The translations under genes were made by a program, and so were the position numbers. Shown piece after piece: positions 5,534 to 36,325 of a DNA stretch of 64,000 bases. Source of the stretch: Acidobacteriota bacterium (lineage in GTDB: Bacteria > Acidobacteriota > Blastocatellia > Pyrinomonadales > Pyrinomonadaceae); the NCBI GenBank assembly GCA_031411895.1, contig JANOBZ010000181.1, positions 2,998 to 66,997 on the forward strand, read 5' to 3'. How positions within the stretch are numbered: position 1 is the stretch's first letter; each line of letters opens with the position of its first letter. The notes under the pieces were generated by a model. The model had not been told where the DNA came from. It did not search any database and saw nothing but the letters and a program-made list of their open reading frames with translations.

Positions 5534-7074
5534 TTTTTCCTCAGTAATCTCAGTTTTTCAAGATAAAAATTTTTCGTTTCGACAATAGTGTAATTCGCTT
5601 CGACAAAATTTTCCAACGGTCGGCAACGCTCGCCGTTTTCACAGCTTTCGTCCGTCAGCAGCCAGACCTCGTTTGCTTCTGACGGGATTTCGGAAATGAC
5701 AAACTCCGCCTGTCGTTTCGCGCTTTCAGCCGTTTCCTGTTCCGATTCGAAGATCCATTGGAAAAATTTTTCATCCGGCAAAACTTTATTCGCGCCTTTG
5801 TAATAGACGGGAAGTGCGAGCGCGTCGTAATTCGGAAAAATTATGATCGGCTGACCGGGTTTTTCGTGCGCTTTCAAAAATGACGCAATGCGCTCCCAAT
5901 CACCGCGTTTTGTGAGATTGGGGTGAAGCGTAAAAACGGCGTAAGCGAAAAAAAACGCGACTAAAATCGCTAGACAAGCCGCTATCAAATTATTCGGGCG
6001 AAAAATATTTTTTCTCTTCGCGCCTTCGGTTAGCTCCGGCAACATTTCTTTTAGGATCAGCGAAACGAGTAAAATCATCGGCACGAATAAAACCGCCGCG
6101 TGACGAACCGCAATATATCTTCCGCCGAGCAAAAAATACGGCATCATAAAAAATGCGGCAATCGTCGCCGTGATCGCTGCGAAAGCGAGAATTTTTTCGT
6201 CAAAGATTTTGCGCGTTTTAATAAGAAAAACGATTGCCGCTAAAACCGCGATCCTCATTATCCATAATCTGAAAAAAGATATGTCGGAAATTTCTTTCGA
6301 TTCCGTCGGGAAAATTTCGGTCGGAAGAACGAACGTCAAAAAATAGCTCCAGAGCAGACGAACAAATTCAAACAAACTTTTTTCGGTGTGAAAACCCGAC
6401 GAACCGGCGGCAATCTGAGATTTTATCGCCCACAAAAGCGGCAGAAAAAACAAACCGGCGACGAGCATCTGCAGAAAATACTTTTTCGCCTCGTTCCATT
6501 TCCGCGTCACGAGCAAGGCGGCGAAACAACCCGCGAGCAAAAATCCGAGATAATAATTTGTATAAAGCGCAATGATCGAAACCGATATAAAAACGATCTC
6601 GAATCGCCTCTGACGTTCTGCGTTTCGGCGGTTCAAAAAAATATCCGAGAACAAATTCAGAATCACGACCGACAAAAAAATCACCGGCGAATAAAGTCGG
6701 ATTTCCAGACTCGCCCAGATCAGATACGGGTGCAGCGCGAAAAAAGCGGTTGCGAAAAATGACGCTTTTTCATCGAAAAATTTTCGCGCCAGACGGTAAA
6801 AAAAGATGATCGCCAGAACGGAAAAAATTATCGAAAGTAACCGCGCAAAGAAGATCGAATCACTCGCCGTGCGCCACAAACTCAGAATCCAGAAATAAAG
6901 CGGTGCTTGTTTTTCGATTGAAAAAGCATTGTTGACCGAATAAAGAAAACCGTTTCCCGTCGTGTACAGCGTCGAGGCTTCGTCAACCCAGATATTGACG
7001 AAATAAGCCATCGGCAGAGCGATGAGCGTATGCAGAAATACCAAAATTAAAATATTTTTCGGCGGTTTAATCAT
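5530..7074 (-). CDS. Integral-membrane glycosyltransferase, GT39/ArnT-PMT-like
   Basis: 514 aa, many TM helices in the N-terminal two thirds then a soluble C-terminal domain; architecture of dolichyl/undecaprenyl-phosphate-sugar-dependent glycosyltransferases. Confidence 0.75.
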   Translation of the reverse strand: MIKPPKNILILVFLHTLIALPMAYFVNIWVDEASTLYTTGNGFLYSVNNAFSIEKQAPLYFWILSLWRTASDSIFFARLLSIIFSVLAIIFFYRLARKFFDEKASFFATAFFALHPYLIWASLEIRLYSPVIFLSVVILNLFSDIFLNRRNAERQRRFEIVFISVSIIALYTNYYLGFLLAGCFAALLVTRKWNEAKKYFLQMLVAGLFFLPLLWAIKSQIAAGSSGFHTEKSLFEFVRLLWSYFLTFVLPTEIFPTESKEISDISFFRLWIMRIAVLAAIVFLIKTRKIFDEKILAFAAITATIAAFFMMPYFLLGGRYIAVRHAAVLFVPMILLVSLILKEMLPELTEGAKRKNIFRPNNLIAACLAILVAFFFAYAVFTLHPNLTKRGDWERIASFLKAHEKPGQPIIIFPNYDALALPVYYKGANKVLPDEKFFQWIFESEQETAESAKRQAEFVISEIPSEANEVWLLTDESCENGERCRPLENFVEANYTIVETKNFYLEKLRLLRKK

Positions 7075-13828: not shown

Positions 13829-14839
13829 CTACGACGAAACCGCCGATAAACCTTTCGAATCTTCGACTCTTGCCCAGAGATTTTCATTTAATGAGCGATA
13901 CGCGGCTTCGATGACTTCGACCGAGGCGAGCGCGTCAGCCGGATTAATCAACAATTCTTCACGCCCAAGAATCGCGTTGCGAAAGTTTTCGATCTTTGCG
14001 CGGAAAGCCTGCACTTTATCGTAACCGTTACCGAAAATCGTCCAGTCGGGCGACGAATTGAGCTTGTATTTCGATTCGCGCCAGCCGATATGCAAGGTTC
14101 CGTTCGTGCCGTAAACACTGATAAAATTCGGCAGTTCCTTATTGATGCCCCACGTCAGATCGACGCTCGCGACGACGCCGTCGGCGGTTCTCGCCAGCAT
14201 CTTGACGTTTTCGTCAACCGACAGATTCTGCGTTCCCGAGGTTTCGACCGCGAGAACTTCTTTAATCGCGCCGAGAAAGTAGCGAATAATATCAACCGAA
14301 TGCGTTCCGTTGTCGATCAAAACGCCGCCGCCCGCAATTTCCCGGTTCGAATTCCAGCGCTTCGACATATCGACTTTTGCGGTAAACGCATTTTCAAACT
14401 GCACGATCTCGCCCAAAACGCCCGAAGCGAGAATCGCTTTCGCTTTGACGACGTCTTCGCAGTAACGAAACTTCGTCGCCATCGTAAACGTCACATTGCG
14501 CGTTTCGGCGGTTTCGATCATCGCTTTGGCTTCCGGCAAAGTCAGACAAAGCGGCTTTTCGCACAAAACGTTGACGCCTTTGCGCATAAAAAACATCGCG
14601 ATTTCGGGATGCGTATCGGGCGGCGTCGCGACGATCACGGCGTCGATTTCCGTACTTTCGGCAAGAGTTTGATAATTCGAAAAATGCCGCGCGCCGAACG
14701 GCTCGGCAAACGCCTTCGCCGAATCCTGATTGATGTCGGCAACCGCGACGAGCGTGCAGCAAGTGCTCTGCTGAAACGCCTGCGCGTAAGTCTGGGCAAT
14801 TCCGCCCGTTCCGATGAGTGCAAATTTAAGTTTGTTCAT
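13829..14839 (-). CDS. Gfo/Idh/MocA family oxidoreductase (WbpB-like)
   Basis: MNKLKFALIGTGGIAQ Rossmann N-terminus, EKPL motif; start moved to ATG 14839 next to a hairpin repeat. Confidence 0.85.
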   Translation of the reverse strand: MNKLKFALIGTGGIAQTYAQAFQQSTCCTLVAVADINQDSAKAFAEPFGARHFSNYQTLAESTEIDAVIVATPPDTHPEIAMFFMRKGVNVLCEKPLCLTLPEAKAMIETAETRNVTFTMATKFRYCEDVVKAKAILASGVLGEIVQFENAFTAKVDMSKRWNSNREIAGGGVLIDNGTHSVDIIRYFLGAIKEVLAVETSGTQNLSVDENVKMLARTADGVVASVDLTWGINKELPNFISVYGTNGTLHIGWRESKYKLNSSPDWTIFGNGYDKVQAFRAKIENFRNAILGREELLINPADALASVEVIEAAYRSLNENLWARVEDSKGLSAVSS

Positions 14840-34849: not shown

Positions 34850-34906
34850 AAAAATTCGTCTTCGGGCGATATTCCGCAGTAGCTCAATGGCAGAGCATTC
34901 GGCTGT

Positions 34907-35457
34907 AAGCTAGGCAAGGTCTTTTACAATGGCAGAGAAGCGCACATATCAACAGCGCAGAGAATACATGCTCGAAGCGGTTAAACGCCGAAGGGCAAAA
35001 GTTCGAGAAATGGCTGTTGAATACAAAGGCGGTAGTTGTGAGGTTTGCGGCTACAATCGTTGTATCGAAGCACTTGAATTTCATCATCTTGATCCGGTAA
35101 AAAAAGAATTTGGAATTTCCGCAAAAGGTTATTCCAGAAGTTGGGAAAAGGTTAAAGCTGAAATTGAAAAATGTGTTTTGTTGTGTGCAAATTGTCATCG
35201 TGAATTCCACGCTGGAAAGTTGCAGCTTTCACAGGTGACTGTGATTGAAAAATCGGATGAATTCAGGGAAGCCTTCATTAATGCAAATTAATATGGTAAT
35301 CCTGAGCGAAGCCTGCTGAATGGTTTAAGAGTAAGCAGGAACGTGCAGAGACTAGAGATTGAGGAAACCAAACCGATAAAATCTCCACGAGCGTCCGACA
35401 ACTTTTTAGGAAGTTGATGAGATAGTCCACACTCAAACGAAAGTTTGGGAGAAAGTG
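34907..35457 (+). mobile_element. Group I (IC3-like) intron candidate with homing-endonuclease ORF
   Basis: Preceded by exon U, ends in G; blocks CAGGGAAGCC (35264-35273), AATCCTGAGCGAAGCC (35298-35313) and GTGCAGAGACTAGA (35343-35356) resemble conserved P4/P6/J8-7 segments of tRNA-Leu/Azoarcus-type group I introns (from memory; not folded). Confidence 0.7.
34929..35291 (+). CDS. HNH endonuclease (intron-encoded, putative homing endonuclease)
   Basis: CEVCGY...LEFHHLDP...KCVLLCANCHREFH HNH/Zn motif; AAGG 10 nt upstream of ATG; 3' end of ORF overlaps the putative P4-P5 region. Confidence 0.8.
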   Translation: MAEKRTYQQRREYMLEAVKRRRAKVREMAVEYKGGSCEVCGYNRCIEALEFHHLDPVKKEFGISAKGYSRSWEKVKAEIEKCVLLCANCHREFHAGKLQLSQVTVIEKSDEFREAFINAN

Positions 35458-35511
35458 TAACCGAAGGGTTGTAAGTTCGAGTCTTACCTGCGGAGCTTCA
35501 AATTAAAAATA

Positions 35512-35546
35512 AAAAACGGTAACTTTAACAGTTGCCGTTTTTTATT
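35512..35546 (+). terminator. Rho-independent terminator after tRNA-Asn
   Basis: AACGGTAACT / AGTTGCCGTT stem followed by TTTTTTATTTT. Confidence 0.7.
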
Positions 35547-35657
35547 TTCCCTTTCTTTCCAGATCATTTAACGATTAAGGTTGATTTTATCCTTTATCGT
35601 GTCCTTTTTCGTTTACGGTATTCCGAAAATTTCCTCGAACTCCAGCAATTTCAGCTT

Positions 35658-35672: not shown

Positions 35673-35779
35673 CCTAACATTAGGCAAGAGAACATAAGTC
35701 GTTCTTATACAGATATTTACATAAGTTGACAGTTCTTGACAGAGACGAGATCAACAAAGGAATTATAAGGAGAAATACA

Positions 35780-36325
35780 ATGAAATTATACAGCTTAAAA
35801 AGAACAATCAGCGTCGCGGCATTAGCTTTTGTCGCAATTCTCGGCACGAGCGAAATAACCAGCGCGCAGACGAGAAAAATCCAAAAACAACAGCAGAAAG
35901 TTGCCAAGCAGCAGCAAAAAGTTGATAAGCAGCAGCAGAAACTTGAAAATCAGCAGCAGAAACTCCAGGCGTCGCGCTATCGCGTTTATCGCAACGGCAG
36001 TTATTATCAAACCGACCGTCGCGGAGCCGATCTTCTTAAACAGGCGGTAAACGCGGGCTACCAGCAGGGTTTCCGCGCCGGTCAGACCGACCGCAGATCG
36101 CGTCGTTCGGGCGGTTACAACAGTTCGTCAGTGTACAGAAACGGAAACTACGGTTACCAGAGTTATGTCGACTCGCGCCAGTATCAATACTACTTCCAGC
36201 AGGGTTTCGAGCGCGGTTACCAGGACGGCTACAACAGCCGCAGCCAGTACGGCTCGAACAACAACGGTTCGATGAATATCTTGGGAACGATCCTTCAGGG
36301 TATCCTGAATATTCAGCAGTTCTAA
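35780..36325 (+). CDS. Secreted Q/Y/R-rich low-complexity protein, hypothetical
   Basis: Start at ATG 35780 after AAGGAGAAA; signal peptide ...GTSEITSAQ; QQQKV(A/D)KQQQK repeats; Tyr/Gln-rich C-terminal half. Confidence 0.6.
   Translation: MKLYSLKRTISVAALAFVAILGTSEITSAQTRKIQKQQQKVAKQQQKVDKQQQKLENQQQKLQASRYRVYRNGSYYQTDRRGADLLKQAVNAGYQQGFRAGQTDRRSRRSGGYNSSSVYRNGNYGYQSYVDSRQYQYYFQQGFERGYQDGYNSRSQYGSNNNGSMNILGTILQGILNIQQF

Follow-up and report, generated by a model that had tools for sequence, protein, structure and literature searches.

This article concerns a transfer RNA gene that is split within its anticodon. It lies in a 64,000-nucleotide (nt) stretch of a Pyrinomonadaceae contig (Acidobacteriota), called the window below, and consists of two exons of tRNA-Asn(GUU) on either side of a group I intron, which itself carries an open reading frame (ORF) for a nuclease of the HNH type. 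I consider it probable, at roughly 0.8, that this is an active tRNA-Asn gene, that the intron must leave before the anticodon can form, and that the nuclease gene is a selfish homing-endonuclease gene. The four parts of the arrangement are as follows.

34873-34906, plus strand: exon 1 of the tRNA-Asn gene, 34 nt, TCCGCAGTAGCTCAATGGCAGAGCATTCGGCTGT (called by ARAGORN in intron mode and from the joined exons); it supplies the 5' strands of the acceptor and anticodon stems, the D arm and the loop bases C32, U33, G34 and U35, and its end, CTGT, recurs in all 87 loci.
34907-35457, plus strand: group I intron, 551 nt, beginning AAGC and ending GUG.
34929-35291, plus strand: HNH endonuclease ORF, 120 codons and a stop (ORF list, Pfam PF01844).
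35458-35495, plus strand: exon 2 of the tRNA-Asn gene, 38 nt, TAACCGAAGGGTTGTAAGTTCGAGTCTTACCTGCGGAG; it supplies U36, A37 and A38, the variable loop, the T arm, the 3' strands of the anticodon and acceptor stems and the discriminator G, with CCA not encoded.

Run in intron mode on the raw DNA, ARAGORN reports tRNA-Asn(GUU) with an interrupted anticodon as the sole tRNA of the window, in its own notation tRNA-Asn(gtt) i(35,551), that is, with a 551-nt intron at position 35, while its default mode reports zero tRNAs across the whole 64 kb. Once the exons are joined, the same program folds a regular tRNA-Asn(gtt) cloverleaf with the anticodon loop CU-GUU-AA. The U1-A72 pair and the discriminator G agree with those of Escherichia coli tRNA-Asn. 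Where most homologues encode the CCA end (...GGAGCCA), the window reads ...GGAG CTTC (35495-35498), and the tRNA would therefore require a CCA-adding enzyme.

The intron is recognized by Rfam as RF00028 (Intron_gpI), matched at 35189-35449 on the plus strand over the full model (1-253) with 101.3 bits and E = 4e-25, against a gathering score of 50 bits; this is the sole Rfam hit within the window, and its score ranks among the highest of the intron family members tested. A model of the helices P2 to P9 was drawn from the window sequence, in which every one of the 58 modelled pairs is a standard pair, and was then counted on 53 diverse homologous cores (alignment A2). Standard pairs fill 92.5% of cells in these homologues, compared with 32-45% when the partners are slid by 1-3 columns as a control, compensatory changes on both sides occur in 41 of the 58 pairs, and none of 500 shuffles reached any of the covariation measures. 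Covariation is seen at nearly every pair in P2, P6a, P8 and P9 and at about half of the pairs in P3 and P4, and the pseudoknotted P3-P7 core with its P4-P6 and P8-P9 domains is present, in the following parts.

35229-35244, plus strand: P2 hairpin UCACAG-GUGA-CUGUGA with a GNRA loop; 6 of 6 pairs compensatory, 99.7% of cells paired.
35253-35259, plus strand: P3 5' strand, pairing with 35392-35398; 7 pairs, 4 compensatory, 97% paired.
35263-35268 with 35300-35305, plus strand: P4, enclosing P5; P4 and P5 together 93.7% paired, with 4 compensatory pairs.
35271-35273 with 35295-35297, plus strand: P5, inside P4; covariation counted together with P4.
35277-35292, plus strand: P5a, AUUAAU-GCAA-AUUAAU, window-specific, holding the stop codon of the ORF; from reading of the sequence only.
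35306-35308 with 35342-35344, plus strand: P6 (covariation alignment).
35312-35317 with 35334-35339, plus strand: P6a; compensatory change in 6 of 6 pairs.
35348-35354, plus strand: P7 5' strand, G-A(bulge)-GACUA, pairing with 35423-35428.
35355-35385, plus strand: extra hairpin between P7 and P3' (P7.1-like), GAGAUU...AAUCUC, 31 nt, as read from the letters.
35392-35398, plus strand: P3 3' strand, partner of 35253-35259.
35399-35416, plus strand: P8 hairpin; 5 of 6 pairs compensatory.
35423-35428, plus strand: P7 3' strand, UAGUCC; 5 of the 6 P7 pairs invariant in the 53 sequences, 99.7% paired.
35432-35438 with 35443-35449, plus strand: P9 with a GAAA loop; 6 of 7 pairs compensatory.

By analogy with the established architecture of group I introns, P7 is the site of the guanosine pocket. 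The core has the pattern of subclass IC3, without P5abc or P2.1 and with just P2, P3, P4, P5(a), P6(a), P7, P8 and P9, and its conserved strings in J3/4-P4 and in P7 agree with the IC3 rows of the Williams seed alignment. Subclass IC3 has no extra helix between P7 and P3', however, and here the 31-nt hairpin at 35355-35385 occupies that place, and the intron is therefore named IC3-like rather than IC3. The loop of this hairpin holds a conserved motif (UGAGGA..CC..AAUAA), and pairing in its stem reaches no more than 58-66% in alignment A2, because the number of hairpins there (one or two) and their size differ between homologues. The first hairpin proposed by Rfam (P1/P2 at 35193-35215) has mismatches and low posterior probability and was replaced by the covarying P2 at 35229-35244.

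The two splice sites rest on a further set of pairings outside this core.

34901-34908, plus strand: P1 5' strand, exon GGCUGU and intron AA, with the 5' splice site after U35 (34906).
34909-35219, plus strand: loop L1, 311 nt when the two intron pairs that extend P1 are left out, holding the first ~97 HNH codons.
35220-35227, plus strand: P1 3' strand, UU followed by the internal guide GCAGCU (the guide itself 35222-35227).
35429-35430 with 35455-35456, plus strand: P9.0, enclosing P9; 96% paired, covarying.
35457, plus strand: terminal intron guanosine (omega-G), invariant and directly after P9.0 in all 53 aligned sequences.

In an alignment of 81 distinct genes the sequence GCAGC(U/C) is invariant and stands directly upstream of the GNRA-looped hairpin, and in the window it falls within the ORF, 315 nt past the 5' splice site. 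The last exon base, U35 (34906), faces G35222 and gives the U.G wobble pair; the exon and the guide form six pairs in 68 of the 81 distinct loci and four or five in the rest. The helix runs on into the intron, where base +1 has its partner immediately before the guide in 79 of 80 loci (A-U 55, G-C 17, G.U 5, U-A 2) and base +2 pairs in 61 of 80, while base +3 is unpaired; 0 of 2000 shuffles gave counts as high for +1 and +2. The distance between the 5' splice site and GCAGC is 304-386 nt in homologues that bear an ORF, and in homologues without one it falls to 108 nt (locus L082), 86 nt (L081) and 7 nt (L087), the last of which closes a 7-nt loop (GGCUGU-GGCUAUC-GCAGCU) and is the textbook form of P1. 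At the other end, the two P9.0 pairs vary together (A-U 40 and G-C 11 for one; A-U 27, C-G 20, U-A 3 and G-C 1 for the other), and since this covariation ends one base before the invariant G35457, the 3' splice site is fixed. A possible alternative guide at the start of the ORF (GCAG, 34932-34935) would give only 4 base pairs and is not conserved, unlike the invariant GCAGC at 35222 with its covarying flanks. No convincing P10 was found: rather than pairing with UAA of the 3' exon, the bases just before the guide are bound to the opening bases of the intron, and P10 was dropped from the model.

Much of this had been anticipated by a preliminary description of the same DNA, whose exon and intron coordinates and quoted strings are all present in the sequence as it gave them. 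The regular tRNA-Asn cloverleaf with a CU-GUU-AA loop that it drew is what ARAGORN returns for the joined exons, and the intron-aware tRNA search that it had suggested as a check ends in the 551-nt call cited above. Its group I assignment is borne out by the 101.3-bit match and by the foldable, covarying P3-P7 core. The three blocks that it had singled out as conserved are exact, and they fall on P4, J4-5 and P5 (CAGGGAAGCC, 35264-35273), on J5-4, P4' and P6 (AAUCCUGAGCGAAGCC, 35298-35313), and on J6-7 and P7 (GUGCAGAGACUAGA, 35343-35356). It had also placed the split between anticodon positions 35 and 36, where P1 and P9.0 now put it by covariation, and its junction rule of U last in the exon and G last in the intron agrees with the P1 wobble pair and the invariant G35457. 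The likeness to IC3 tRNA introns that it noted holds for the core and stops at the hairpin between P7 and P3'.

Within L1 lies the HNH gene. The ORF scores 25.2 bits against Pfam PF01844 (cutoff 21.4), in keeping with the 120-codon HNH frame noted in the preliminary description, and it matches the phage HNH families PHROG 2255 (E = 2e-32) and PHROG 3106. Residues C37, C40, H52, H53, C86, N88, C89, H90 and H94 never vary among 25 homologues, the window copy being one of them; this CxxC...HH...CxNCH set comprises the catalytic His/Asn/His and four zinc-binding Cys, and is the pattern of a zinc-bound HNH nuclease. Searched by sequence, the PDB returned nothing better than McrA (6ghc) and a group II maturase (6me0), both marginal at E of about 0.01. 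The nuclease proper covers amino acids (aa) 1 to about 95, and aa 96-120 are the guide, P2, P3, P4 and P5 read in frame. The overlap between ORF and core that the preliminary description had noticed is thus real, although it is not limited to P4-P5 and takes in the guide, P2 and P3 as well.

These two parts of the reading frame evolve differently. Non-synonymous and synonymous substitution rates (dN and dS) were estimated by the Nei-Gojobori method for 43 pairs among 17 copies of Pyrinomonadaceae and Blastocatellia type. For codons 3-95 the median dN/dS is 0.07 (window compared with L008: dS 0.30, dN 0.018), the values for the window and its close relatives being 0.06-0.14, and by this measure the HNH part is under strong purifying selection. 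For codons 96-115 dS is about 0 and dN is 0.02-0.27, and the tail codons are kept constant as RNA and not as protein. The tail codons over the guide, P2, J2/3, P3, J3/4 and P4 translate as L-Q-L-S-Q-V-T-V-I-E-K-S-D-E-F-R-E, and the ribozyme of L087, which has no ORF, yields the same 'peptide' when read in the same frame (LQLPRETVVEKPGEFREA). Free-standing relatives of the protein end just after CHREFH (97 aa in L087, 100 aa in L081, about 90 aa in phages), and the AlphaFold confidence (predicted local distance difference test, pLDDT) of the tail is about 35. In other words, the nuclease ORF lacks a stop codon of its own and reads on to a chance stop in P5, which in the window lies in the P5a hairpin. 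Because the ORF runs through the guide and half of the core, a translating ribosome must unfold them, and translation and splicing would presumably be mutually exclusive on one RNA molecule.

The arrangement is widespread. The HNH protein has 4510 relatives (protein clusters) at E <= 0.001 in the protein collection, the best 120 of which are 58-93% identical to the window protein, a high value for 120 aa across phyla, and at least 561 species genomes encode it in a scan of one genome per species. The carriers are labelled as Pyrinomonadaceae, Blastocatellia, other Acidobacteriota, Nitrospira, Elusimicrobiota, Omnitrophota, several Patescibacteria, Aerophobetes, WOR-3, Acetothermia, Delta- and Gammaproteobacteria, Clostridia and Planctomycetia. 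A set of 88 loci was assembled from 7 metagenome or genome contigs, the best 80 genome loci and 1 provirus locus, and ARAGORN finds a split tRNA in 86 of them (78 of the 80 genome loci, the 7 contigs and the provirus), the other two reaching a contig end. All 86 are tRNA-Asn cut at the same place (CTGT, then the intron ending in G, then TAA) with exons that vary with the host lineage, and those that ARAGORN labels Thr(tgt) or Tyr(gta) reflect ambiguity in the placement of the junction and not another gene. Given 86 such loci, chance is excluded as the source of the arrangement. The ORF-bearing introns share a single fusion frame, with an invariant L-Q-L over the guide, and yet have host-specific exons, which argues for one fusion event followed by spread between lineages. 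Two loci, L008 and L010, have exons identical to those of the window, 90-97% HNH identity and the same synteny with guaA; their dS is 0.99 for guaA and 0.30 for the HNH gene (L008), and 0.84 and 0.54 (L010), a contrast that also weakly suggests such spread.

Some observations from the same loci deserve mention in their own right. L021 is labelled Heliobacteriaceae and yet has exons of Blastocatellia type, and L041, L045, L053 and others show mismatches too, so part of the apparent spread over phyla may be mis-binning. In several unrelated hosts the intron-bearing tRNA-Asn is followed at once, on the other strand, by a gene for a large serine recombinase (Resolvase, Recombinase, Zn_ribbon_recom; L088 3491-5224, L002 3603-4474, L003 3495-4396, L081 2144-3205), and mobile elements therefore seem to integrate often at the tRNA-Asn 3' end. 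L088, an IMG/VR contig, was considered as a phage-borne example of the ORF-bearing intron and rejected, being a provirus/host junction (dnaX, recR, tRNA, serine recombinase), and a 206-nt 'intron' called by ARAGORN in L102 has no group I match.

An intron-encoded homing endonuclease should have alleles to invade, and these exist. The ORF lies in L1, with its tail overlapping the core, and uninterrupted tRNA-Asn genes with an identical 49-nt junction, in which the presumed target is intact, occur in at least 120 metagenome stretches from soil and peat. In one of these, L287, a divergent guaA stands upstream just as it does in the window (GuaA 73% identical) and there is no intron, whereas L008 and L010 have guaA and the intron at the same locus; related genomes therefore differ in the intron at one locus.

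The phage relatives of the protein match only the nuclease part (aa ~16-95) and are encoded by free-standing genes within tRNA arrays. Their linkage to tRNA-Asn is repeated: the nearest tRNA within 200 nt is tRNA-Asn(gtt) in 42 of 79 phage loci, with tRNA-Asn downstream of the HNH gene in 29 of these 42, mostly within about 30 nt, although only 11% of all tRNAs there are for Asn (binomial p = 1e-19; not every locus is independent of the others). Isolated phages share this layout, and Vibrio phage PC-Liy1 (KVP40-like) has an HNH gene whose end lies 4 nt ahead of tRNA-Asn. In Bacillus phage Bastille (NC_018856.1, L288, record 5857-6685) the HNH homologue at 6037-6480 starts 107 nt past a complete tRNA-Asn, and its stop codon abuts a tRNA-Asn 3' fragment, TAGGCTGTTAACCACTGTGTCGTTGGTTCGATTCCAACCTAGCACG, that begins in the anticodon stem; the second 'tRNA-Asn' annotated in that record (6618-6685) is not called by ARAGORN, and the layout looks like the scar of an insertion of the nuclease gene at the anticodon region. 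A further layout, a free-standing HNH gene beside a tRNA-Asn with an ORF-less form of the window intron (Rfam 55-77 bits), is found in L081 and L082 (Omnitrophota), L087 (Saccharicenans) and L336 (IMGVR_UViG_3300032782_000001). The last is a 436-kb jumbo-phage contig with an array of 36 tRNAs, in which positions 1926-2861 hold a tRNA-Asn with a 227-nt ORF-less group I intron at the site used in the window, the HNH gene 21 nt later and then an intact tRNA-Asn; L326, a 77-kb phage contig, also has an ORF-less intron, within a 12-tRNA array. From this linkage, the HNH family most likely recognises tRNA-Asn genes.

Other features of these phage sequences are also of note. L336 has a second, weaker HNH homologue (14348-14593) adjoining tRNA-Val, and the phage tRNA array of L159, which also contains an HNH / tRNA-Asn pair, has an Rfam abiF RNA (RF03085, 47.5 bits, 2558-2594) directly upstream of tRNA-Arg. 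The motif formed by P7, the extra hairpin and P3' (GTGCAGAGACTA-N25-55-AGCGYCCR) occurs in at least 120 phage contigs (L291-L410), a few of them with the motif in other tRNAs (ARAGORN: Gln, Lys, Leu), and 114 of the 120 have no split tRNA around it, so close relatives of the ribozyme core probably sit in phage protein-coding genes.

Downstream of the split gene in the window there is one further feature of relevance.

35506-35548, plus strand: terminator-like hairpin followed by a T run, 11 nt past the tRNA 3' end (consensus scan).

The scan finds 1 such site where 0.9 would be expected by chance, and the hairpin is suggestive only. Beyond it, 35726-36325 on the plus strand is an ORF of 199 aa with a signal-like N-terminus, successive QQQK(V/L) repeats and, in its tail, an abundance of Tyr, Gln, Gly, Asn, Arg and Ser.

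How the gene might work can be proposed from these parts. The precursor tRNA would be transcribed up to the hairpin at 35506-35548, and the ribozyme would fold, with G30-G31, C32-U35 and intron bases 1-2 pairing with UU-GCAGCU (35220-35227) as P1 over a 311-nt loop. A free guanosine held in P7 would attack after U35, P9.0 would bring G35457 into the same pocket, and ligation of the exons would restore the loop CU-GUU-AA. P10 seemingly being absent, the tRNA anticodon stem probably holds the 3' exon, as in the Anabaena tRNA-Leu intron, for which it was suggested that this stem aligns the exons (Zaug et al., 1993, as cited in PMC3984707). The HNH protein would be translated from L1, reading through the guide, P2, P3 and P4 into P5, and the nuclease would most likely cut intron-less tRNA-Asn genes near the anticodon region, where repair would copy the intron in (homing).

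Several points weigh against this proposal. P1 has to close a distance of over 300 nt, and translation of the ORF would open up the guide and P2-P5; efficient splicing may therefore depend on regulation or on some helper. At about 95 aa of real protein the nuclease is small, with no recognisable extra DNA-binding domain, and the AlphaFold model of the HNH protein is poor (mean pLDDT 55). The synonymous contrast between guaA and the HNH gene is modest, introns and exons co-vary within Nitrospira and within Pyrinomonadaceae as they would under vertical descent, and the taxon labels of metagenome-assembled genomes may be wrong. Co-variation of introns and exons within clades is also what leads to the most serious competing explanation, namely that the intron does splice but is now immobile and vertically inherited, like the plastid tRNA-Leu intron, with the HNH protein kept as a maturase or for some host function. 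Such a role would fit a protein far more conserved (dN/dS 0.07) than many selfish nucleases, which tend to decay, and an ORF that is physically fused to the ribozyme, and HNH domains are known in group II intron maturases, one of which is the weak PDB match 6me0. However, the catalytic and zinc-binding residues are invariant, intron-less alleles with an identical junction are abundant, one of them at the syntenic guaA locus, and relatives free of any ribozyme adjoin tRNA-Asn in phage arrays, which is expected of a homing nuclease and not of a maturase; I regard loss of mobility as improbable.

Far less probable is that the window holds a dead tRNA-Asn gene with a decayed, non-splicing intron, the work being done by a second, intact copy elsewhere. 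The 64 kb in view are only part of the genome and such a copy may exist, but decay is hard to reconcile with 58 standard pairs out of 58, an Rfam score among the highest of the family tested, an intact ORF with every invariant residue and a dN/dS of 0.06-0.14, a terminator-like hairpin after the tRNA, and an arrangement conserved in at least 86 other loci. The remaining alternative would move both splice sites two bases upstream, after U33 and after G35455, and so produce a tRNA-Thr(UGU). Either junction satisfies the rule of U(-1) and terminal G and yields a 7-nt loop, and ARAGORN folds the alternative as tRNA-Thr(tgt) and labels several homologues so. Against it, the 5' G of the guide GCAGCU faces U35 and not U33, covariation links the first two intron bases past U35 to the two that precede the guide, and P9.0, which covaries at the two bases just before G35457, would be broken by the earlier site; P1 and P9.0 together therefore exclude the Thr junction. 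The discriminator G73 and U1-A72 also fit Asn, and the HNH relatives in phages are linked to tRNA-Asn(gtt) and not to Thr, so that this alternative is scarcely credible. An active tRNA-Asn gene with a self-splicing and probably mobile intron seems to me the best reading of the locus.

A broader history can be put forward, tentatively, and with rather more doubt than that reading. It would be that of a homing nuclease lineage specific for tRNA-Asn, for which all stages of assembly may be present in public sequence: free-standing beside an intact tRNA-Asn, as in the phage arrays; free-standing beside an ORF-less intron at the same site, as in the jumbo-phage contig and in the Omnitrophota and Saccharicenans genomes; and fused into L1 without a stop codon, where the protein takes its tail from the ribozyme core. 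A single fusion might then have spread over many phyla, possibly carried by phages. Taken together, the loci suggest a homing nuclease directed at tRNA-Asn and seen at different points of its merger with an intron, and they provide a testable natural series for the model in which a free-standing nuclease gene invades an intron to create a mobile group I intron.

Standard tRNA finders overlook the gene, and hundreds of genomes of Acidobacteriota, Nitrospirota, Elusimicrobiota, Omnitrophota, Patescibacteria and others will seem to be without a tRNA-Asn, while annotations such as 'HNH endonuclease' or 'McrA' conceal an intron in the carriers. If the interrupted copy is the only tRNA-Asn gene of its cell, the translation of every Asn codon depends on RNA self-splicing. 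Furthermore, the tail of the ORF, with almost no synonymous and some non-synonymous change, is a coding sequence shaped by RNA structure and not by protein.

With regard to known systems, the preliminary description had implied that the tRNA-Asn host and the insertion site were new. The element is common, with at least 561 species genomes and 4510 protein clusters, and the host and site were already catalogued in the survey by Williams (bioRxiv 2020, 10.1101/2020.01.27.920355), which expanded the four classical types of tRNA intron to 21 using about 80,000 genomes. Its seed alignment includes Pam37.Asn.4Ug, which by the survey's naming scheme is a tRNA-Asn intron that follows base four of the anticodon loop and has U(-1) and a terminal G, and the window intron shares the host tRNA, the insertion point between CUGU and UAA and the U(-1)/terminal G of this Asn.4Ug class. 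Between the two, 161 of 228 aligned core positions are identical (71%), and both introns have GCAGCY followed by a GUGA-looped hairpin, an extra hairpin after P7 and an end in ...AAGUG. Pam37.Asn.4Ug is 273 nt long and ORF-less, however, whereas the window intron is 551 nt long with an HNH ORF, and the survey describes no encoded protein. In its alignment P1 is drawn with a nearby UGUA repeat, while the comparison of 81 sequences here makes the conserved GCAGCY the guide.

The classical IC3 introns (tRNA-Leu(UAA) of Anabaena and plastids, tRNA-Ile(CAU) of Azoarcus, tRNA-Arg(CCU) of Agrobacterium and tRNA-fMet of cyanobacteria) have the GNRA loops of P2 and P9 in common with the window intron, but they occupy other tRNAs at other loop positions. 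The window differs from them in its extra hairpin between P7 and P3', which the classical introns lack in the Williams seed alignment, in its P9 region and in its large L1 ORF, most classical IC3 tRNA introns being without any ORF. The Synechocystis tRNA-fMet intron does encode an enzyme, I-Ssp6803I, which is of the PD-(D/E)XK type and not HNH, in a different tRNA and at a different site (PMC3984707); its activity was shown experimentally (Bonocora & Shub, 2001, as cited there), while that of the window enzyme is predicted. A tRNA-Asn intron is not mentioned in PMC3984707 (a 2014 review of bacterial group I introns), in PMC8450103 (tRNAscan-SE 2.0) or in PMC11835236 (a 2025 intron database), and a search of literature mostly outside the subscription journals found no description of an HNH gene in any tRNA intron, of HNH in L1, or of free-standing relatives linked to tRNA-Asn, whether in phage arrays or next to an ORF-less intron; its only relevant hit was the Williams survey, which has the intron type and not the protein.

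Phages offer the closest parallels for the nuclease. An HNH gene within a group I intron, as in the window, is known from I-HmuI, I-TevIII and I-PfoP3I (PMC3428280, PMC2790892), where protein-coding genes of phages are interrupted and the enzymes, which carry extra DNA-binding modules, are larger; in the window the host is a bacterial tRNA gene, and the real protein of about 95 aa has no stop of its own before the ribozyme. Free-standing counterparts are T4 SegB, a GIY-YIG nuclease encoded within a tRNA cluster and with a preference for the T2L tRNA-Asn gene as its site (PMC2330249), and T4 mobE, an HNH gene that mobilises a neighbouring intron (PMC2790892). The layouts of SegB and of mobE/I-TevIII, the latter described as 'trans homing' or 'collaborative homing', are the same as those of the phage and the Omnitrophota and Saccharicenans relatives, although SegB belongs to a different nuclease family from the HNH family here, whose cleavage is predicted, and the window nuclease is inside the intron and not beside it. 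The finding belongs to an established type, in which the anticodon loop of a bacterial tRNA holds a group I intron that carries a homing-nuclease gene, and its intron class is already catalogued; what is added here is the covariation-backed definition of its splice sites and helices, a guide that lies 315 nt downstream within the ORF, a protein tail encoded by the ribozyme, the scale of its distribution, and a series of free-standing, intron-adjacent and intron-embedded nuclease genes around tRNA-Asn.

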